A stretch of DNA of 11,632 nucleotides. Source: a virus. Below the pieces are notes generated by a model. The model was not told the DNA's origin and made no database searches. It worked only from the letters and a program-made list of their open reading frames with translations. The stretch lies in the UHGV virus genome UHGV-0155908. The stretch is one strand, 5' to 3'. This document shows, piece after piece, positions 1,385-11,632 of the stretch. Position 1 is the first letter of the stretch. Each line of letters starts with the position of its first letter. A program made the position numbers and the translations under genes.

Positions 1385-2050
1385 ATGAAGCACGAAAATG
1401 TTAATACAATTATTGCTCTGGCGGGACTGGGGTTAGCTGCCTTTAGTACATTTATGCAATTTAAACCTCAGCAGGATGTTTTGGATATAGTTGTAACAGC
1501 TGATAATTCTGATAACAGAGGTTTTTTCCTGAAAGGAAAACCACTTCCTGATGATATTTTTGGGGAGTCAAAAATCCTCGCTGGACCGTATAATTTGTTT
1601 TTCGAAATATCTAATAATATAAACAGACCTGTTACAATTAAGGGAGTTGACATAAAATTACTTGATGATACAGGGTCGTCAATAGATTATGGCGATATAG
1701 TTTACTCTGAAAGTGATAAAAAAACATTAACCAATCCTGTGCAATATGAACCTCATACAGTAAAAAGGTTTAACGTAGCTATCAATATACCAATCGTTTA
1801 TGGAAAAGAGTTCAATAAATGTTTTCATCCTACAGGCTTTATAGTTGAGCAGGGTAGATATTTTGGCGATATCCGTTTTTGCTATTATTCTGAGGGTGTT
1901 GATTTCTTTGGCAATAAAGTTAATTCCCGTGTTTTGGAAGGCGGTGGTATTTATTTTACTAAGGATGAAAGTAAGTATCTAAACTATAAAGTTACAGTAG
2001 TTACTGGTGATAACACTATTATCAGTAAGGTGGTCACTATTCGCGACTGA
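1385..2050 (+). CDS. hypothetical membrane-anchored protein (N-terminal hydrophobic helix) in the int-proximal cargo position
   Basis: 221-codon ORF; N-terminus TIIALAGLGLAAFSTFMQF is a likely signal-anchor or TM helix with no lipobox Cys. AT-rich like 48..839. Converges on the integrase 3' end with only 11 nt between stops. A TATAAT hexamer lies upstream at 1360-1365; the SD is weak. Confidence 0.6.
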   Translation: MKHENVNTIIALAGLGLAAFSTFMQFKPQQDVLDIVVTADNSDNRGFFLKGKPLPDDIFGESKILAGPYNLFFEISNNINRPVTIKGVDIKLLDDTGSSIDYGDIVYSESDKKTLTNPVQYEPHTVKRFNVAINIPIVYGKEFNKCFHPTGFIVEQGRYFGDIRFCYYSEGVDFFGNKVNSRVLEGGGIYFTKDESKYLNYKVTVVTGDNTIISKVVTIRD

Positions 2051-2061
2051 CCACCTGTGGG

Positions 2062-3045
2062 TTATTTATCAAGAGTAGGGGTTATCTTGATCTTTCTATC
2101 ATAGACAAGAACTTGAGATTCAGTTTTGTGACCGCTGAACTTCTGTTTATCTCTGGAAGAGCCTTCGTAGTCAGAAATGCTTTTAGCCTTCAGATCATGA
2201 AATGTGCAATCCAGAGGTCTTCCTAGATGGTTAGCTGCTGCTGCTCTTGCTTTTCGCCATGCCTCGTTAAACCCTTTGTAAGAGTAACGTTCTCCATACA
2301 TCGTTTTTATGACCGCACCATCTTCTCCCCATGCTCGACACCGATTCACTGCTGTTCGTAAACGTTCAGTCCATGCTTTTATTTGCTTAACACCCGTTTT
2401 GCCTTGCTGGATGAAAATCCCTTCATCCATTATCTGGGACCAATCCATCTTCAGAACATCGGATACCCTCGCTGCACACAGGTAAGCTATTTCCATTGCG
2501 GCTTTAACCGGTTCACTGGCGTGTTCATAAATCGCCAGGTATTCTTCATCCGTGATGTAGCGATCACGCTTTGGTTTTGGAAACTTGTCCACTCCTACAC
2601 ATGGATTACCAGGAACGAAGCCACGTTGATACCCCCAGCGATAAACTCGAGACATCGAGCTATGTTCATGGTTGGCCTGGACACGGCTTTTCTTTCCTCT
2701 GGCATCCATGTAGCGTCTGACATGTTCTGGCTTAATGGCTTTAGCCTCAGCATCACCGAAAACAGCCAGCAGATATTTTTCATGAGCCAGATAGTCTTTC
2801 TGTGTTCGCGGGGCTAAAGCTGCATAATCCGTGCTGTTTAGGAACTTCTTCCATAATTGGGAAAAGGTAAGTATATTTTTCCTGCCTTCAACCACCTTCT
2901 CAAAAGCGATCCATACCTCTGATTTTGAGGCGCCGGCAGGTGCCAGTTTTTCTGTTGTTCCACCTGGTTTCCAGTAATAACCAGAAGGGCGAAAGAAAAC
3001 GCCCTTTGGCATCCACTCGTTACCGGGTGCTCGTTTGCGACCCAT
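2062..3045 (-). CDS. int: tyrosine site-specific integrase, lambda Int family
   Basis: 327 aa. N-terminus MGRKRAPGNEW...PSGYYW parallels lambda Int MGRRRSHERRDLPPNLYIRNNGYYCYRD (arm-binding domain). Central QQGKTGVKQIKAW parallels lambda EQSKTGVKIAIP. C-terminus FHDLKAKSISDYEGS...GHKTESQVLVYDRK parallels lambda FHELRSLSARLYEKQ...GHKSDTMASQYRDDR, including the catalytic Tyr. Comparison is from recalled lambda sequence, not an alignment tool. Confidence 0.93.
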   Translation of the reverse strand: MGRKRAPGNEWMPKGVFFRPSGYYWKPGGTTEKLAPAGASKSEVWIAFEKVVEGRKNILTFSQLWKKFLNSTDYAALAPRTQKDYLAHEKYLLAVFGDAEAKAIKPEHVRRYMDARGKKSRVQANHEHSSMSRVYRWGYQRGFVPGNPCVGVDKFPKPKRDRYITDEEYLAIYEHASEPVKAAMEIAYLCAARVSDVLKMDWSQIMDEGIFIQQGKTGVKQIKAWTERLRTAVNRCRAWGEDGAVIKTMYGERYSYKGFNEAWRKARAAAANHLGRPLDCTFHDLKAKSISDYEGSSRDKQKFSGHKTESQVLVYDRKIKITPTLDK

Positions 3046-5530: not shown

Positions 5531-6711
5531 GGTTTTACCCTCGTTAAGGCGGCTGCAACCGCCGAACTTTCTCCATACACAACAGAGAAGAGCACCTGCA
5601 TTGGTCGGCGGCTTGCAGGGACCGCTTTCTTTTTGCCCGGGTGGATTGGGTTATGAGCCCGTCGCCCGGTGATGCTCTTTTCTGTTGCGTAAAAAGGGCG
5701 GTACCGAGGTAGAACATTATCTTCGTCCCCCTTGCATAAGGTTGAAGGCCCAGGTACCGCCAAGACTACACACATGGAACTACGGTTATCACAGTCCTAA
5801 GCGTGATTTGGTTGTGGTTGCTGGTGCTGAACTCCAGCTCAGTGGCGCGGTGTTTCAATATCGTAACCGCCCGTTCCATCCGCGTTCGATCAGTCCGTAT
5901 GCTCGCTTAGAACGTTTCGCCTGCTTATCTTTTCTCAACCGTTTGACGGTCAGCCCCGCCATTCACCACAACGAAGAGAGCACTGCCGGTATCCGAATTG
6001 AACGGACCTTTTCGTTGCCCATCACCGCTATCTGTATAGCGGTGGCAGGGATTGAACCTGCCGTTATGCCTTGCTCGTCAATGCTCTCATCGTTGTGTGC
6101 TGACCTTACAGCCAGCATGGTTGGAATGAAGACGCATCACGACTTTTCACCAACTGGGCGGGATCACCATGAAAGAGCCGCCCCTTTAGCCTTTCATGCT
6201 CCCCATCTTTCTAGGTAGTCAATGCCTCCAGTTGGGCATACAACCTTCGGTTATCGCTCCGTCGTCAGCGCCACTCTCCAGGACATTTATAAGGACCGTC
6301 TCCAAGTGGTAACTCTTCCAGTCCCGGTAAGCATCCTGCGAGATGCTTACCATGACCGGCTGATCTTCCCTGAAAAAGGCTGGCGGTTACCGGACAAACG
6401 GGAAAACACCGGGCCGCCAGAACAGGGAGTTACTTGTTATTGCTTTGGCCTGCTTTTAACCACATCAGGCGCGGTGGTAGGTATCTTCGGGCGGGGTGCT
6501 AAGGGGGTGATTAGCCCTTGCCCTTAACACTCCTGCTGGTTTTGGTATTCCTGGCTTGGGTATCGCCACCAGCTATAGGAATTTGACTACGAGTTGCGGT
6601 TAATCAGGCCGCGCCTCTGTTACCCCTCCCGAAGACACCTGTCAGCGAATCATCCGGTTATTCATATGCCACCGGCGGCTACTTCGTGGGCGTCCTGCCT
6701 GTTCGCTGTTG
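5531..6711 (-). other. ORF-poor, GC-rich, hairpin-rich tract between putative pL and the first early-left gene; candidate large structured RNA or leader
   Basis: No minus-strand ORF of 60 aa or more across about 1.2 kb (only 5527..5775, rejected). Perfect hairpins at 6023-6044 (9 bp stem, 4-nt loop), 6326-6351 (10 bp stem, 6-nt loop) and 6380-6420 (7 bp outer plus 4 bp inner stem). On the minus strand 6045-6061 reads GCAGG-TTCAATC-CCTGC, a tRNA T-arm-like stem-loop. GC about 58% in a sampled 60-nt stretch. Confidence 0.3.
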
Positions 6712-6719
6712 ATGAATAA

Positions 6720-6748
6720 AATCTAACTTAACTTAGCTTTTAGATCAA
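6720..6748 (-). promoter_or_regulatory. putative pL-type early leftward promoter
   Basis: On the minus strand: TTGATC (-35; + coordinates 6743-6748), 17-nt spacer, TAGATT (-10; 6720-6725). Lies just beyond the 3' end of the repressor gene and overlaps the operator repeats. Confidence 0.4.
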
Positions 6749-6774
6749 GAAAAAACACCAAACTATTCTTAGCT
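6721..6774. promoter_or_regulatory. OL-type operator repeats (CTTAGCT half-sites)
   Basis: ATCTAActtaACTTAGCT at 6721-6738 matches the OR copy at 7503-7520 in 15 of 18 positions. Inverted ends ATCTAA (6721-6726) and TTAGAT (6740-6745). A second CTTAGCT at 6768-6774. Confidence 0.45.
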
Positions 6775-6802
6775 TGATGTTAAGAGGAAGGTTAGAGGTG
6801 GG

Positions 6803-7429
6803 TTAAAGCTCGTACTGAACGCCTTTGACAACGCCGATGATCAGGCAATTACCGTTAATTGAAATGTTTGGATAGCGTGGATTTAAGGGAACTAAGAACT
6901 TTTGAGGCCCATCGATGACAAGTTTTTTTACAGTAGCCTCGTTTGTCCCATCAAGCCTGGCTACGACTATCTTTCCATGAAGTGGCTCTGCATCTGGATC
7001 TACTATGACTGTTGCCCCTTCAGGGATTGTCGGGAGGCCATTAGGGTTTGTCATCGAATCACCTTTAACCTCCAATGCAAAGGAGCTATCCCCTATGCGG
7101 AGTGATGTCTCTATCCACTTATCTACTTCGCTGAAAACTTCTGCTGCTTTACATTCTGTAAACTGTCCAGCCTGAACCCAGGATATCACCGGAATCCTTC
7201 GCATCTTGGTTATCAGATTGCCTTCAAATTCAGTGCCATAAAGTATGTAATCAATTGATGTGTTGAAATACTTTGCAAGTTTCGCAAGTGACTCGCCTCC
7301 AGGCACATTAACGTCTTTTTCCCAATACCCAACCGCCACATCACTAACACCGCAGAACTTACCCAGTTCTTTCTGCGAGGTTTTGGTTATGCGCCTGAGA
7401 GCTTTGATGCGCTGACCGACAGTTTCCAT
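6803..7429 (-). CDS. cI: CI-like prophage repressor (HTH plus LexA/S24-type autocleavage domain)
   Basis: 208 aa. N-terminal HTH (QKELGKFCGVSDVAVGYWEKD). C-terminal GDSMTNPNGLPTIPEGATVIVDPDAEPLHGKIVVARLDG...KKLV...LVPLNPRYP closely parallels lambda CI [40 protein letters not shown]...KKLI...LQPLNPQYP. An Ala-Gly (WVQAGQ) candidate cleavage site is present. Confidence 0.92.
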   Translation of the reverse strand: METVGQRIKALRRITKTSQKELGKFCGVSDVAVGYWEKDVNVPGGESLAKLAKYFNTSIDYILYGTEFEGNLITKMRRIPVISWVQAGQFTECKAAEVFSEVDKWIETSLRIGDSSFALEVKGDSMTNPNGLPTIPEGATVIVDPDAEPLHGKIVVARLDGTNEATVKKLVIDGPQKFLVPLNPRYPNISINGNCLIIGVVKGVQYEL

Positions 7430-7455: not shown

Positions 7456-7523
7456 CTAAGCAATCTTAGTTTTTATTGACCAAAGTTAGATTGGTTATTA
7501 ATATCTAATCAAACTTAGCTAAG
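7456..7523. promoter_or_regulatory. OR-type operator cluster in the cI-cro divergent intergenic region
   Basis: Palindrome CTAAGcaatCTTAG at 7456-7469. Inverted repeat TTAGAT (7486-7491) / ATCTAA (7503-7508). Perfect 10-bp palindrome CTTAGCTAAG at 7514-7523. 18-mer ATCTAAtcaaACTTAGCT at 7503-7520, shared with OL. Confidence 0.55.
7476..7504 (+). promoter_or_regulatory. putative pR-type rightward promoter for cro
   Basis: TTGACC (7476-7481), 17-nt spacer, TAATAT (7499-7504), followed by AGGAGG (7522-7527) 4 nt before the cro ATG at 7532. Operator palindromes overlap the -10 and the RBS. Confidence 0.6.
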
Positions 7524-7531
7524 GAGGCGTT

Positions 7532-7759
7532 ATGACAACCGATGATATTGAAAACTACTTCGGCAGTACTGAGAAGGTTGCCGAATTTTTTGGAATCACA
7601 AGCGAGGCTGTTTACCAGTGGCGTAATAGAACTGGTCGCCTTATCCCAAAAGGGCGTGCAGCTGAAGCAGCATATCGAACCGGGGGGAAATTGGTTTTTC
7701 ATCCCGACCTTTACGAAAAGCGTAGCGATGCTTCAGTAAAACTCAAACCACAGGAATAA
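7532..7759 (+). CDS. cro: Cro-like HTH regulator
   Basis: 75 aa, divergent from cI across the operator region, strong SD. Segment GSTEKVAEFFGITSEAVYQWRN resembles the lambda Cro HTH [21 protein letters not shown]. Confidence 0.8.
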   Translation: MTTDDIENYFGSTEKVAEFFGITSEAVYQWRNRTGRLIPKGRAAEAAYRTGGKLVFHPDLYEKRSDASVKLKPQE

Positions 7760-7769
7760 GGGGGGAGCT

Positions 7770-8321
7770 GTGGGTAACGAACCTATTTGGAAAGTCGAAC
7801 GTCAGCCAGCCTGGCTGGTGGCGGCGATAAAAAAAACGATCACCGATCTTCCTGGTGGTTATGCCGAGGCGGCGGAATGGTTGGGCGTGACAGAGAACGC
7901 ATTGTTCAACCGCCTTCGTGTTGACGGCGACCAAATCTTCCCGCTGGGCTGGGCAATGGTTTTACAACGTGCTGGTGGTTCAACTCATATTGCTGATGCC
8001 GTTGCGCGCCATTCTCAGGGCGTATTTGTACCGCTGGCAGACGTTGATGATCTGGATAACGCCGATATAAACCAGCGCCTGATGGAGTCCATTGAATGGA
8101 TAGGTCGTCATTCTAATTTTGTACGTAAAGCCACGGCTGATGGGGTAATTGACGCAGATGAGCGTGCTCAGATTGAGGAAAACAGCTATCAGGTTATCGC
8201 GAAGTTCCAGGAGCACGTAACGCTTCTTTATCGAGTTTTTTGTGTCGCTGAAAAGAGTGACGCCCGCGAGTGTGCAGCTCCGGGCGCCTTGGCGAACAAC
8301 TCTTCGAGTATGGAGAAATAA
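7770..8321 (+). CDS. CII-position regulatory protein (putative phage regulatory CII-like family), 183 aa
   Basis: GTG start at 7770 with GGGGGAG SD 4 nt upstream, 10 nt after the cro stop. HTH-like segment GYAEAAEWLGVTENALFNRLR. Function is inferred from synteny (cro then regulator then replication); the family name is from memory. Confidence 0.5.
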   Translation: MGNEPIWKVERQPAWLVAAIKKTITDLPGGYAEAAEWLGVTENALFNRLRVDGDQIFPLGWAMVLQRAGGSTHIADAVARHSQGVFVPLADVDDLDNADINQRLMESIEWIGRHSNFVRKATADGVIDADERAQIEENSYQVIAKFQEHVTLLYRVFCVAEKSDARECAAPGALANNSSSMEK

Positions 8322-8493: not shown

Positions 8494-8673
8494 GTGCGCG
8501 AACTTAACCGAAGGTTCAAAGACCACCGCGGAGTGTCTGTCCGTGTTATCCGCTGGGAACCAGAAACACAACGCGTTATCTACCTGCGTGATGGCTACCC
8601 GCACGAATGCTTCAGCCCACTTGAGCATTTCAGGCAAAAGTTCAGGGAGATAACGGACGATCATGAGCACTAA
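8494..8673 (+). CDS. possible small ORF, 59 aa (GTG start; ...RELNRRFKDHRGVSVRVIRWEPETQRVIYLRDGYPHECFSPLEHFRQKFREITDDHEH)
   Basis: Translated by hand; one codon under the track cut-off. GGAGGG lies 10 nt upstream of the GTG; its stop (8671-8673) overlaps the start of the O-like gene (8663). Protein-like charge pattern. It competes with the rejected low-complexity track ORF 8270..8653. Confidence 0.3.
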   Translation: MRELNRRFKDHRGVSVRVIRWEPETQRVIYLRDGYPHECFSPLEHFRQKFREITDDHEH

Positions 8674-9520
8674 ATTAACCGGCTACGTATGGGATGGTTG
8701 CGCGGCGTCGGGCATGAAGTTGTCTAGTGTCGCGATCATGGCTCGCCTCGCTGATTTCAGCAGCGATGAGGGAGTGTGCTGGCCGTCCATTGAAACTATT
8801 GCTCGCCAGCTTGGCGCAGGGCCGAGCACGATCAGAACGGCAATCGCAAAGCTTGAAAAAGATGGCTGGCTCACGCGTACACAGCGCCGTAATGGTAACC
8901 GTAATGCGTCGAACGTGTACCGCCTGAATGTGGCGAAACTTCAGGCTGCCGCATTTTCTCAACTGTCAGATTCTGACACGTCAAAATCTGACGCATCAAA
9001 TTTTGACGCCTCAAAAACTGACCCGTCGAAATCTGGCAAAAACGGCGGTTTTGACCCGTCAGAATCTGGCGGGGATCCGTCAGTAAAATCAAAACAAGAT
9101 CCACAAGTAACTTCAAAACCCTCTTGTCCGGTTGCGGCGCAACCAGACCCTGAAGTCGTGATTACTGATCAGGCAATTTTGGTTCTGACCCATTTGAACC
9201 AAATCAGCGGATCCCGGTATCAGAAATCAAAAACATCCCTGGAGAACATCCGTGCCCGACTGCGTGAGGGATACAGCGTTGCAGACCTGCAACTTGTTAT
9301 CGACCTGAAGCATGAGCACTGGCACGAGAACGACGAGCAGTACCAGTACATGCGACCGGAAACGCTGTTTGGCCCGAAGAAATTCGAGAGCTATCTGCAA
9401 AGCGCTACCCGCTGGGAGCAGAAGGGACGGCCTAAACGTGCTGACTGGGGAGCGAAAAAGCGCGATGTGATGGCTTTTGGTCCGGTTGAAACAACGATTC
9501 CAGAGGGGTTCAGAGGATGA
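8663..9520 (+). CDS. phage replication initiator, lambda O-like (N-terminal HTH domain, iteron-encoded linker, conserved phage C-terminal domain)
   Basis: 285 aa. N-terminal HTH region (PSIETIARQLGAGPSTIRTAIAKLEKDGWL). Low-complexity S/D/K linker encoded by DNA iterons. C-terminal ...RARLREGYSVADLQLVIDLKHEHW...RPETLFGPKKFESYLQ matches the conserved C-terminus of phage replisome-organiser proteins as I recall it. Confidence 0.85.
   Translation: MSTKLTGYVWDGCAASGMKLSSVAIMARLADFSSDEGVCWPSIETIARQLGAGPSTIRTAIAKLEKDGWLTRTQRRNGNRNASNVYRLNVAKLQAAAFSQLSDSDTSKSDASNFDASKTDPSKSGKNGGFDPSESGGDPSVKSKQDPQVTSKPSCPVAAQPDPEVVITDQAILVLTHLNQISGSRYQKSKTSLENIRARLREGYSVADLQLVIDLKHEHWHENDEQYQYMRPETLFGPKKFESYLQSATRWEQKGRPKRADWGAKKRDVMAFGPVETTIPEGFRG
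8974..9064. repeat. origin-type iterons inside the O-like gene (TGAC-N-C-N-TC-R-AAA units, 15-bp period)
   Basis: Copies at 8974-8986 (tgacacgtcaaaa), 8989-9000 (tgacgcatcaaa), 9004-9017 (tgacgcctcaaaaa), 9019-9031 (tgacccgtcgaaa) and 9052-9064 (tgacccgtcagaa), with a degenerate copy near 9034. Followed by an A-rich stretch at 9076-9120. Same logic as ori-lambda within gene O. Confidence 0.6.
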
Positions 9521-10398
9521 CGTTAAACAAATATTGCCAGGCGCTGGTGGCACTACGTAGCCAACCAGCCCACGAATTGAAAGAAGTTGGCGATCAGTGG
9601 CGGACACCGGACCTGCTTTTTTGGGGCATTAATGCGATGTTCGGCCCGCTGACGCTGGATCTCTTTGCTGATGACGATAACGCTAAGTGCCCTGTGTGGT
9701 ACACCGCCGAAGATAACGCGCTGGTACAAGATTGGGCGGAAATGCTGGAATCAATCGGCGGGGCCGCATTCGGTAATCCACCATATAGCCGTTCGCAGTA
9801 CCACGAGAAACAGGCGATAACCGGCATGACCCACATCATGGATCGCACAATGGAAATGCGTGAAAAGAGTGGGCGTTACGTGTTCCTCATTAAAGCGGCG
9901 ACAAGTGAAACATGGTGGCCGGAAGATGCCGATCACATCATGTTTATCCGCGGTCGTATTGGCTTCGATCTCCCTGTGTGGTTTGTTCCTGCTGATGATA
10001 AGCAGAAGCCCACTGGTGCTTTCTTTGCTGGTGCTATTGCAATCTTTGATAAGTCATGGCGCGGAGAGCGTTTCAGCTACATCAGCCGTACCGAACTGGA
10101 AGAAAAAGGGCGGGCGTTTATGGCTTTGGCTCAATTCGCCGTTGGTAAAGAGCAAACAATTGCAATGCAGGCAGCTAAGGAACCAGCAGCAACACCGGAA
10201 ACTGAGTCACGAATTTGGCCTCTCGAGGTTGGTCTGGTGTTTAACCAGGTGGAAGGCGTTGATGTATTGAGCGAGGCCCAGCAGAACAAACTGAAAGCCA
10301 ACATCAATCAACTCTGGCTGGAACGAACGGCCACCAGCGAAATTATCACAATTGCGCGTGGTCTTGTTGGCAGCATGCAGGGGGTAACCCATGCGTGA
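9517..10398 (+). CDS. phage N6-adenine DNA methyltransferase (Dam-like)
   Basis: 293 aa. N-terminal W-x-TP motif (DQWRTPDLLFWGINAMFGPLTLDLFADDDNAKC) and catalytic NPPY (AAFGNPPYS). Its ATG overlaps the O-like stop as ATGA. Confidence 0.85.
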   Translation: MTLNKYCQALVALRSQPAHELKEVGDQWRTPDLLFWGINAMFGPLTLDLFADDDNAKCPVWYTAEDNALVQDWAEMLESIGGAAFGNPPYSRSQYHEKQAITGMTHIMDRTMEMREKSGRYVFLIKAATSETWWPEDADHIMFIRGRIGFDLPVWFVPADDKQKPTGAFFAGAIAIFDKSWRGERFSYISRTELEEKGRAFMALAQFAVGKEQTIAMQAAKEPAATPETESRIWPLEVGLVFNQVEGVDVLSEAQQNKLKANINQLWLERTATSEIITIARGLVGSMQGVTHA

Positions 10399-11632
10399 GA
10401 TTATCGTTGATAACTTTGCTGGTGGCGGTGGTGCATCAACGGGTATTGAACTGGCGATCGGACGCAGCGTGGATATTGCGATCAACCACGACGAAAACGC
10501 CATTGCGATGCACAAGACGAACCACCCTGACACACTGCATTACTGTGAATCCGTATTTGACGTGGATCCGGTAGCCGCCACCGGCGGCAATCCTGTTGGC
10601 CTGGCATGGTTTAGCCCGGACTGCCGACACTTCTCAAAGGCCAAAGGCGCAAAGCCTGTGAAAAAAGAGATACGCGGTCTGGCCTGGATCGTTCTGCGTT
10701 GGGCACTGGCGAAGCGACCGCGCGTGATGATGCTGGAGAACGTGGAAGAGTTTAAAACGTGGGGACCGCTGCTGGCCGATGAAATGCGTCCAGACCCTGC
10801 CCGCACTGGCGAAACATTCAATGCTTTTGTCGGCATGCTTTCCACTGGCATTCCTGCCGATCACCCGGCACTGGCGGAGGTCTGCGAATTTCTTGCTATT
10901 GATCCTGGCAGCACGCAGGCCAAACAGCTGGTGGAAGGGCTTGGATATGATGTTGATTATCGCGAACTGCGCGCGTGTGATTACGGCGCGCCGACGATCC
11001 GCAAACGCTTCTTCATGGTTATGCGCTGCGATGGTTGCCCTATTCAGTGGCCTGTTGTAACCCATGGGGATCCCAAGTCACTGGAGGTGCAGAGCGGCAG
11101 GCTGATGCCATGGCGTACCGCTGCGGAATGTATCGACTGGAATGTTCCGGCTCTGTCCATCTTCGACCGCAAAAAACCGCTGGCAGAGAACACTCTGAAG
11201 CGGATCGCACGCGGCATACAGCGCTTTGTTATCGAAAGTGCGTCGCCGTTTATCGTGAAGTGCAACCACACGAGCTCAAAAAATGCGTATGACGCTTTTC
11301 GCGGACAGTCACTGAATGAGCCATTACAGACCATTACTAAAAAACTCGGCTACGCGTTAGCCGTTCCACACCTTACAAAATTCCGCACTGGCGCAACCGG
11401 GCAGCCCGTTACCGAACCTGTTCCGACGGTAACCGCTGGCACGTCAAAACGCCCGGGCGGGAACGGGCATGCTCTCGGGATTGTTGAGGCTGCATTGACA
11501 CCATTCCTGGCGGGTAATGGTGGTAGTGAATACCAGGCTAAACCGCGCCCGCTGAATAAACCTGCTCATACCATTCTGAAGCAATCCCGAGCCTGTCTTG
11601 TTGCGCCAGTGATAGCCCGCCAGTTTGGGGCC
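10391..11632 (+). CDS. DNA cytosine-5 methyltransferase-like protein, 3'-truncated by window end
   Basis: Hand-translated 414 codons, open to the window edge. Motif I-like IVDNFAGGGGAS. Cys-containing FSPDCRHFSKAKG at the spacing expected for the Pro-Cys catalytic motif, though the canonical form is PC rather than PDC. ENV motif at MMLENVEEF. Start overlaps the upstream gene's stop by 8 nt. Confidence 0.75.
   Translation, partial: MREIIVDNFAGGGGASTGIELAIGRSVDIAINHDENAIAMHKTNHPDTLHYCESVFDVDPVAATGGNPVGLAWFSPDCRHFSKAKGAKPVKKEIRGLAWIVLRWALAKRPRVMMLENVEEFKTWGPLLADEMRPDPARTGETFNAFVGMLSTGIPADHPALAEVCEFLAIDPGSTQAKQLVEGLGYDVDYRELRACDYGAPTIRKRFFMVMRCDGCPIQWPVVTHGDPKSLEVQSGRLMPWRTAAECIDWNVPALSIFDRKKPLAENTLKRIARGIQRFVIESASPFIVKCNHTSSKNAYDAFRGQSLNEPLQTITKKLGYALAVPHLTKFRTGATGQPVTEPVPTVTAGTSKRPGGNGHALGIVEAALTPFLAGNGGSEYQAKPRPLNKPAHTILKQSRACLVAPVIARQFGA

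Follow-up and report, generated by a model that had tools for sequence, protein, structure and literature searches.

Two orphan DNA methyltransferase genes in a lambdoid prophage: a divergent C5-cytosine enzyme with a repeat array and a Dam-family protein with a C5-linked C-terminal module

The window analyzed here is the whole 11,632-nt stretch of the virus genome UHGV-0155908, which was recognized from open reading frame (ORF) calls and Pfam matches as the left part of a lambdoid prophage, probably residing in Citrobacter or Salmonella. Two overlapping genes were found at positions 9517-11632, namely ORF1, encoding a Dam-family N6-adenine DNA methyltransferase, and ORF2, encoding a C5-cytosine DNA methyltransferase that is truncated by the window end. 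A preliminary description of the same DNA had placed an adenine-N6 and then a cytosine-C5 methyltransferase at these positions, and both assignments were borne out by profile matches above the cutoffs (PF05869 and TIGR01712 for ORF1, PF00145 for ORF2). The pair is ordinary as first described, and both families are known. The parts worth experiment are an array of diverged repeats in the C5 enzyme and a helical module at the C-terminus of the Dam protein that is genetically linked to the C5 gene. The features of the two genes are listed below.

9517..10398, plus strand: ORF1, phage Dam-family N6-adenine DNA methyltransferase, 293 amino acids (aa) (Pfam, NCBIfam)
9571..10113, plus strand: Dam catalytic domain, residues 19-199, with LDLFAD at 9655-9672 and NPPY at 9775-9786
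10132..10203, plus strand: variable Dam linker, residues 206-229 (24 residues), from alignment A1 and the length classes
10204..10395, plus strand: C-terminal helical module, residues 230-293, from alignment and AlphaFold2
10379..10398, plus strand: putative coupling junction, with AGGGGG at 10379-10384, the ORF2 ATG at 10391-10393 and the ORF1 stop TGA at 10396-10398
10391..11632, plus strand: ORF2, C5-cytosine DNA methyltransferase, first 414 of 644 residues, open to the window end (PF00145, homologs)
10415..10432, plus strand: motif I FAGGGG, cofactor binding, residues 9-14
10613..10636, plus strand: motif IV variant SPDCRHFS, residues 75-82, catalytic Cys78
10736..10744, plus strand: motif VI ENV, residues 116-118, invariant in alignments A3 and A4
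10997..11014, plus strand: motif VIII IRKRFF (RxR), residues 203-208, R204 and R206 invariant in A3 and A4
11261..11368, plus strand: repeat R1, residues 291-326, core PLQTITK
11369..11500, plus strand: repeat R2, residues 327-370, core PVPTVTA with the conserved Thr346, absent from the phiNP homolog
11501..11608, plus strand: repeat R3, residues 371-406, core PAHTILK, absent from 570-aa homologs such as P0094
11609..11632, plus strand: start of repeat R4, first eight residues, cut by the window end

ORF2 starts at the ATG at 10391 and comprises 414 codons with no stop before the window end. A hidden Markov model (HMM) comparison, suggested together with the preliminary description, placed the product inside the C5-methyltransferases (PF00145, 53.3 bits against a cutoff of 22). 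The homolog P0001 is 97% identical and 644 aa long. Two contigs encoding a Dam protein identical to that of ORF1 (L080 and L081) were found to encode a 644-aa C5 protein, of which residues 1-414 are identical to those in the window. Beyond the window end, this protein possesses motif IX (MRMLQPHELYKAQGFP) and motif X (GNAVPPP), both of which are also present in the full-length homolog of Citrobacter phage phiNP. In an AlphaFold2 model of P0001 built from a 48-sequence alignment, the catalytic core received predicted local distance difference test (pLDDT) values mostly of 70-96, and the best 50 Foldseek matches in the PDB were all C5 methyltransferases or Dnmt2 (E 1.5e-09 to 4e-07), including 3g7u (the enzyme of prophage CP-933R), DNMT1, MET1, HhaI, HaeIII and Dnmt2.

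The preliminary description had singled out SPDCRHFS as a non-canonical catalytic segment. It does replace the PCQ form of motif IV, but it gives no ground for calling the catalysis doubtful or aberrant, as SPDC[R/K]HFS was found in all 237 C5 family proteins collected. The segment aligns residue for residue with GGPPCQGFS of 3g7u. In an alignment extending to Pseudomonas phage F116, a Gordonia phage and Halobacterium phage phiH, no variation was seen at the Pro, Cys and Ser of motif IV, the ENV Glu, the two motif VIII Arg or the motif X Asn. This Asn (GNAV) was detected in 230 of the 237 proteins, and the remaining seven gave no motif X match in their last 90 residues. As the octapeptide is invariant in the family and identical in ARM81ld_p31 of an Aeromonas phage, and as the other motifs are intact, we regard SPDC[R/K]HFS as a subfamily signature compatible with activity and not as an anomaly. 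With the Cys nucleophile, ENV, RxR and GNAV all intact, the ORF2 product should use the ordinary S-adenosylmethionine (SAM)-dependent mechanism.

The close homologs of the C5 protein vary in length from 570 to 695 aa, and nearly all of this variation is accounted for by blocks of ~35 residues that are cleanly present or absent between motifs VIII and IX. Among the homologs 82-96% identical to P0001, whole-repeat insertions or deletions of R2, R3, R5, R7 and R9 were observed (alignment A2). P0094 and P0069, for example, are devoid of R3, P0007 is devoid of R5, P0012 has an additional R7, and P0099 has an additional R9 but no R5. Each block follows a common pattern, in which a hydrophobic stretch, a Gly, the core (D/E)xPxxT[V/I/L]T[A/T] and a second hydrophobic stretch succeed one another. 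We defined nine repeat types, R1 to R9, with a mean pairwise identity of 21%. In leave-one-out HMM searches, each type scored 10.9-23 bits against the other eight, and none of 300 shuffles per type reached the score. The 644-aa enzyme is arranged as R1-R2-R3-R4-R5-R6-R8, seven diverged modules of 33-48 residues. Across the 237 proteins, 5-10 repeats and at least 40 architectures were found, R3, R5, R7 and R9 being optional and the order being occasionally changed. The repeats are therefore real and are gained and lost as modules.

The C5 enzyme is indeed cut by the window end, as the preliminary description stated, and 414 of its 644 residues are present. The region where recognition was expected is nevertheless not wholly unseen, since the window holds residues 209-414 after motif VIII, including three of the seven repeats (R1-R3). 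The repeats were also found in distant members of the family, namely those of Burkholderia, Aeromonas and Gordonia phages, Pseudomonas phage F116, RcapNL and phiH, as well as in ARM81ld_p31 and the homolog of Rhizobium phage RR1-A. Between an enterobacterial and a Burkholderia phage protein, R5 is 86% identical, the catalytic core 62% and R1-R4 18%; this uneven conservation suggests constraint or exchange at the level of single modules. The repeat region is enriched in Gly (12%) and Thr (10%). Past the window, residues 548-565 of the 644-aa protein in L080 and L081 (FLETYCGESDDEWLVT) align with R9 of other homologs minus the 17 residues that hold the PxxT core, and look like a decapitated ninth repeat. 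The array has apparently not been described in this family, and we consider it moderately novel. As for multi-domain C5 enzymes in enteric phages, the literature yielded only Bacillus cases, REBASE lying outside the search.

PF05869 matched ORF1 over residues 19-199 with an E of 5e-44 and 150.4 bits (cutoff 28.1; profile positions 3-167 of 169), and the NCBIfam equivalog TIGR01712 matched with 201.5 bits (cutoff 97.05). Neither alignment A1 nor alignment A6 shows any variation in NPPY, which occupies Dam residues 87-90. A Citrobacter freundii protein (P0238) is 100% identical to the ORF1 product, and the exact protein also occurs in Salmonella records. The target is likely GATC by analogy with the phage Dam-like enzymes of Gammaproteobacteria, most of which act on this site (PMC5537653). 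Altogether, the enzyme classes of both genes and the integrity of their motifs were established.

Homologs of the Dam protein are labelled 'phosphoadenosine phosphosulfate (PAPS) reductase' in public records for ST64B (sb44, L004) and Escherichia phage Flotzy (CDS0062, L002). We rejected this label, which originates from PHROG 33262, a fusion family with the Dam domain at positions 284-490; the PAPS reductase domain is absent from ORF1 and from the ST64B sb44 and Flotzy proteins. A similar annotation was encountered in Rhizobium phage RR1-A (L090, 3642-4853), in which a large C5 methyltransferase gene is followed by an overlapping gene annotated as PAPS reductase.

The Dam relatives fall into three length classes of ~215-230, 283-303 and 388-444 aa. 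As the minimal class is ~215-230 aa, ORF1 exceeds the minimal form by about 65-80 residues, instead of the ~100 given in the preliminary description. The uncharacterised extension at about 200-293 reported there does exist, but it is not a feature of Dam as such: alignment with the relatives of phiNP (293 aa) and Flotzy (444 aa) split it into a variable linker and a conserved module of ~64 residues (ESRIWPLEVGLVFNQVEG...INQLWLER...SMQG), the latter being tied to the C5 gene. In the 444-aa relatives such as that of Flotzy, the linker is replaced by ~175 residues. No Pfam match was found for the module or for the long Flotzy linker, even at an E of 10. AlphaFold2 predicted the module as three helices (pLDDT 67-80) despite a shallow alignment; in the run on the Dam protein, with a shallow alignment of 86-100% identity, the Dam domain was left unfolded.

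The module is rare, with 27 carriers among 1.84 billion cluster representatives, and is C-terminal in every one of them. Its presence was tabulated against that of a downstream C5 gene in 63 loci that encode Dam relatives with enough downstream sequence (59 from species genomes and the four phage or prophage loci L001-L004), and the resulting table of 31/6/5/21 gave a Fisher p of 3.7e-7; a scan with the module HMM moved two additional loci to the double-positive class. Carriers other than Dam were also found, namely P0380 (248 aa, weakly matching class-I methyltransferases), P0378 (245 aa) and two small proteins of 86-134 aa, P0379 and P0375. Five divergent carriers outside Dam were looked up, and four of them lie directly upstream of a PF00145 gene encoding 627-693 aa, with a stop and start that overlap or nearly abut. 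The module is genetically linked to the C5 gene. On the basis of the linkage table and the non-Dam carriers directly 5' of PF00145 genes, we regard the module as a mobile element that belongs with the C5 enzymes of the enterobacterial branch and not with Dam. This module and the repeat array are the only parts that are moderately novel.

ORF1 and ORF2 overlap by 8 nt (ATGCGTGA), and AGGGGG lies 6 nt 5' of the ORF2 ATG. The overlapping stop/start junctions and the purine-rich stretch are conserved in eight other loci. Both genes are downstream of cro, cII and the replication gene, and the other features of the early region and of the prophage are as follows.

2062-3045, minus strand: integrase (ORF/Pfam)
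6803-7429, minus strand: cI-type repressor (ORF/Pfam)
7476..7504, plus strand: PR-like sigma-70 promoter candidate 5' of cro, TTGACC-17-TAATAT, by consensus match only
7532-7759: cro (ORF/Pfam)
7770-8321: cII-family gene (ORF/Pfam); an excisionase-like gene was found in the same window
8663..9520, plus strand: replication initiator (HTH_36 and Phg_2220_C), of which the stop overlaps the Dam ATG as ATGA at 9517-9520

The PR-like candidate would drive an operon ending in the two methyltransferase genes. We found no convincing terminator between the candidate (7476-7504) and the window end, and an Rfam scan of the whole window gave zero matches. Owing to the gene order, the overlaps and the absence of a convincing terminator, the placement in the replication operon and the stop/start overlap claimed in the preliminary description were confirmed at the sequence level, but the translational coupling itself, which had been stated as a fact, we infer from this arrangement.

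In the left part of the window, the 1.27 kb between a yfdP-like gene and the cI repressor (5531-6802) contain no convincing gene, and only patches of this region match E. coli prophages, which have a ClpX-type zinc-finger gene there. Two ORFs of 263 and 221 aa (48-839 and 1385-2050, plus strand) lie past the integrase end of the prophage, and the genes neighbouring this integrase-side region in L080 include one for a DUF4325 protein.

The genes 3' of the C5 gene were surveyed in the matching full-length contigs. In L079-L081, RusA, antirepressor (Ant), DUF968 and antiterminator Q genes follow, and in L080 and L081, Q is followed by a third methyltransferase gene (PF01555) and then by holin, endolysin and terminase genes. 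The order in L078 is similar, with KilA-N, AntA and an unassigned ORF between RusA and DUF968 and without the third methyltransferase. No restriction endonuclease gene was found within 10 kb on either side in L078-L081, and none stands beside the methyltransferase pair in phiNP, Flotzy or one E. coli prophage. Both methyltransferases are orphans, in agreement with the preliminary description.

The third methyltransferase of L080 and L081 (16178-17230, ~4.5 kb past the window end) is a PF01555 N6_N4_Mtase of 350 aa between Q and the holin genes, and an equivalent is annotated at the same position in phiNP and an E. coli prophage. As this gene adds to the Dam/C5 pair, the prophage type encodes three DNA methyltransferases. 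In Pseudomonas phage F116 (L007, 2072-5789), a gene for a 284-aa DNA methyltransferase precedes the C5 gene with a stop/start overlap and a class I SAM methyltransferase gene follows it; the distant C5 family member of Aeromonas phage LPM4 (L005) is likewise flanked by other methyltransferase genes. The stacking of methyltransferases around this C5 enzyme seems to be general.

The repeat array occupies the position that the recognition domain has in C5 methyltransferases. In its core, it is similar to the T[L/I/V] element of the multispecific Bacillus phage enzymes (GEPAFTVNTIDRHGVAV, SPTITTNKGEG and SHTLSASDWRG) and of M.HaeIII (NEPAFTVQASGRQ), and likewise to the mapped recognition cores (EPAFTVNTIDRHGVAV for the Bacillus phages, NEPAFTVQA for M.HaeIII); the reference sequences of the Bacillus phage enzymes, M.HaeIII and M.HhaI were verified in GenBank or the PDB. 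In SPR, rho11s and phi3T, the repeat HMM aligned in register with EPAFTVNTIDRHGVAV, and in M.HaeIII with VRQWNEPAFTVQASGRQC, with scores within the shuffle range; none of its matches to the Bacillus phage enzymes, M.HaeIII or M.HhaI was significant. Whether the repeats are tandem target-recognition-like units, which would explain the relaxed or multi-site specificity of the relatives, is in our judgment about evenly poised.

We regard the following explanation as the probable one overall. The prophage would encode two orphan lambdoid-phage methyltransferases, the C5 enzyme bearing a recognition-like repeat array, that pre-methylate phage DNA, the Dam tail being a separate module. Both genes would be transcribed together with the replication genes from the early-right promoter during lytic growth; with such transcription, they are expected to be silent in the lysogen and made in lytic growth, although this timing is likewise a matter we infer. 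The Dam enzyme would methylate adenine N6, likely at GATC, and the C5 enzyme would add 5-methylcytosine (5mC) at many sites by means of its tandem recognition-like modules. Progeny DNA, pre-methylated during replication, would then withstand restriction on entering a new host. The last ~64 residues of Dam would serve the C5 enzyme, most likely as a docking or accessory element; this role, and the protein contact it would entail, we advance only tentatively, as somewhat short of an even chance. Given the relaxed specificity of the characterised relatives (PMC3925955, PMC5537653), the pair could plausibly act against restriction. The prophage enzymes of Paracoccus, for instance, partially protect CCNGG, CCWGG, AGCT, CCGG and GCN7GC (PMC3925955).

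A number of observations weigh against this explanation. On the side of the array, the repeat HMM gave 1.4 bits or less on the Bacillus phage enzymes and -0.8 on M.HaeIII, which is the shuffle range; the repeat profile gave only chance matches to IGFBP4 among the PDB sequences; and in the 48-sequence AlphaFold2 model, residues 250-579 received a pLDDT below 50, so that no fold supports the recognition-domain reading and no fold comparison of the repeats is possible. The relaxed specificity of the relatives could stem from one short motif such as CC (PMC5537653). As a whole, the C5 protein misses the cutoff of TIGR00675 (dcm superfamily; 100.65), with 37.5 bits for the window fragment and 53-55 for full-length homologs, and we regard it as a divergent subfamily. 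Activity, specificity and expression of both enzymes are deduced here from sequence, and GATC as the site of ORF1 from analogy. On the side of the module, it occurs without a C5 gene in six loci (ST64B, L012, L024, L025, L026 and L071) and also in L087, three Shewanella loci have the C5 gene with no detectable module, and the distant C5 family members, those of all the distant phages, are entirely without it; as both C5-only and module-only loci exist and the distant members lack it, the module is not required by the C5 family. One of the search patterns used to collect the loci lay inside the module. Moreover, position alone links adjacent DNA.

Some of these observations fit other explanations, which differ in how well they accommodate the remaining evidence. 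The array might be one flexible DNA-binding or spacer region of an enzyme that recognizes a single very short motif such as CC, with the repeat number tuning affinity or processivity. The Gly/Thr-rich composition, the lack of discrete domains in residues 250-579 of the AlphaFold2 model and the non-significant profile match to known recognition domains would all suit a spacer, and the Paracoccus relatives have been summarised as modifying at least one C in a CC motif (PMC5537653). A spacer would, however, not be expected to have each repeat type conserved as its own ortholog across distant phages (R5 at 86%). Enzymes that are otherwise nearly identical gain and lose whole modules, just as the Bacillus phage enzymes do, and CC is missing from AGCT and GCN7GC, two sites that are partially protected by the Paracoccus enzymes (PMC3925955). 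We thus consider the spacer reading unlikely. As for the module, its link to the C5 enzyme might be merely physical or translational, its coding DNA being the 5' flank of a mobile C5 cassette with no protein-protein function. All junctions retain the overlapping stop/start and the purine-rich stretch within the last module codons, lambdoid mosaic boundaries are often near gene ends, and the module persists after C5 loss in ST64B and the other C5-less loci named above. On the other hand, ~190 nt kept at the protein level to 30-45% identity, with the pattern WPxEV...hhQxxLKxxINxhWLE, exceed the needs of a ribosome-binding site, and a folded three-helix unit is predicted even with a shallow alignment; such a passive role of the module, although it is the chief rival of a docking or accessory function, seems to us somewhat doubtful.

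Alternatively, the methyltransferases might serve the replication, packaging or gene regulation of the phage itself and not anti-restriction, for instance by marking replicated DNA, much as P1 requires Dam methylation at pac. Both genes are directly 3' of the replication initiator in the same operon, a replication role has been speculated for relatives from such a placement (PMC5537653), and the Dam of P1 is needed for packaging in dam- hosts (PMC12707154). Closely related prophages such as ST64B nonetheless do without the C5 gene, which is accordingly dispensable; a relaxed specificity is better suited to protection than to regulation at specific sites; and the third methyltransferase gene before the lysis genes fits a general stacking of methyltransferases. 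A purely self-serving function is therefore distinctly unlikely in our view. The variant motif IV would be explained if the C5-like enzyme transferred a non-methyl group, as does the carboxymethyltransferase CmoX, of which the structure 8yf3 is among the Foldseek matches, and the repurposing of C5 methyltransferase folds by phages has precedent (PMC12783734). CmoX is marked, however, by an Arg replacing the Asn of motif X (N304 of HhaI) and by a neighbouring cmoA (PMC12783734), whereas the present family keeps the GNAV Asn (230 of 237), no cmoA was found in the neighbourhood of L078-L081, and the relatives were assigned 5mC activity by restriction-protection assays (PMC3925955). Carboxymethyl transfer is exceedingly improbable, being effectively excluded by motif X and the gene neighbourhood. 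Finally, the window ends inside the C5 gene and the genes further downstream are not visible there, so the pair might be the modification half of a restriction-modification system with the endonuclease beyond the window end. The downstream genes of L080 and L081, from RusA to terminase, include no endonuclease, and the same is true for phiNP, Flotzy and the E. coli prophage. A hidden partner is vanishingly improbable and effectively excluded, provided that the source of the window shares the gene order of L080 and L081.

A stronger version of the recognition-like array would treat the 7-10 repeats as independent, exchangeable recognition cassettes, each with its own short sequence, and the module as a dedicated partner subunit of the enterobacterial branch. 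We consider this version rather unlikely. If it were true, multispecific C5 methyltransferases would exist in nature as a combinatorial library that dwarfs the set from Bacillus phages and spans enterobacterial prophages and related phages of Burkholderia, Pseudomonas, Rhizobium, actinobacteria and haloarchaea; methylomes of the more than 40 natural architectures would then directly reveal which sequence goes with which cassette.

Annotations of both proteins can already be found in thousands of Enterobacterales genomes, and some relatives have been characterised. What the present analysis changes is that the SPDC motif need no longer be read as the sign of a defective or exotic enzyme, and that the array offers a testable structural reason for the relaxed specificity reported in a widespread family. 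If the modules act separately, the natural variants could be used to derive recognition rules, to predict restriction evasion by prophage and to engineer 5mC writers. Single-molecule real-time (SMRT) sequencing detects 5mC poorly. For this reason, and as the genes are probably silent in lysogens, the activity would have escaped most published methylomes.

Phage Dam-family enzymes include those of phages T1, HP1 and VT-2 (see references in PMC7556043 and PMC5537653). Like the members of this family (PF05869/TIGR01712), the ORF1 product is an orphan enzyme of a temperate phage, and its catalytic domain matches end to end above the curated cutoffs, with NPPY present. The minimal members of 215-230 aa, however, are without the linker and the ~64-residue helical module of ORF1. 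Dmt of phage P1 is a single polypeptide with a Dam-like and a C5-like half. It resembles the present pair in that a temperate phage expresses an adenine and a cytosine methyltransferase as one unit, and differs in being a fusion, whereas the window has two overlapping genes. With M.HhaI and M.HaeIII, monospecific enzymes with solved DNA complexes, the ORF2 family shares the catalytic fold and motifs I, IV (Cys), VI, VIII, IX and X in the same order. Those two enzymes have a PCQ motif IV and a recognition domain of ~80-100 residues, in contrast to PDC[R/K]H and ~300 residues of repeats in the ORF2 family.

Among the closest published systems are the large phage 5mC enzymes of relaxed specificity (~550-700 aa; also ARM81mr_p29), which are orphans like ORF2; such enzymes of ~700 aa are widespread and often lie in replication modules (PMC5537653). 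ARM81ld_p31 of the Aeromonas phage is given as a 5mC methyltransferase of relaxed specificity in PMC5537653, where Dziewit and Radlinska 2016 is cited for it. Its identity to P0001 is 40.5% with 100% coverage (E 1e-138), and it has the same N-terminus as ORF2, the identical SPDCRHFS and repeats of types R6, R8 and R9. It differs in having fewer repeats than the 644-aa enzyme (three strong HMM matches, about five by eye) and, unlike the window, neither a Dam gene nor the module upstream. The homolog of Rhizobium phage RR1-A, named in PMC5537653, is a full-length match to the C5 family, and JCM7686_0772 and JCM7686_2655 of Paracoccus aminophilus prophages are likened to ORF2 from their published descriptions (PMC3925955, PMC5537653). 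In the literature examined, there was no mention of a repeat architecture in these large relaxed enzymes.

Bacillus temperate phages are the only ones named in a 2025 review as arraying multiple recognition domains in one polypeptide (PMC12707154), and M.BceSV of a B. cereus prophage is a further multispecific case (PMC3592412). M.SPRI, M.Phi3TI, M.Rho11sI, M.H2I and M.BceSV share with the ORF2 family one catalytic core with tandem units of ~40 residues between motifs VIII and IX and a T[L/I/V] core. In both groups, the enzymes are prophage-borne orphans, and natural variation adds or removes entire units. Motif IV of the Bacillus enzymes is the canonical SPCQSFS, and they have 439-503 aa and 2-4 units, as opposed to SPDC[R/K]HFS and 5-10 repeats here, and as the repeat profile match between the two is not significant, the likeness is one of architecture and core: the Bacillus core EPAFTVNTIDRHGVAV resembles those of R6 (DEPAHSVTTVDHHAVV) and R9 (DEPLGTVTTNDRFGLV). 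The repeat-array family may represent a Gram-negative counterpart of the multispecific enzymes of Bacillus phages.

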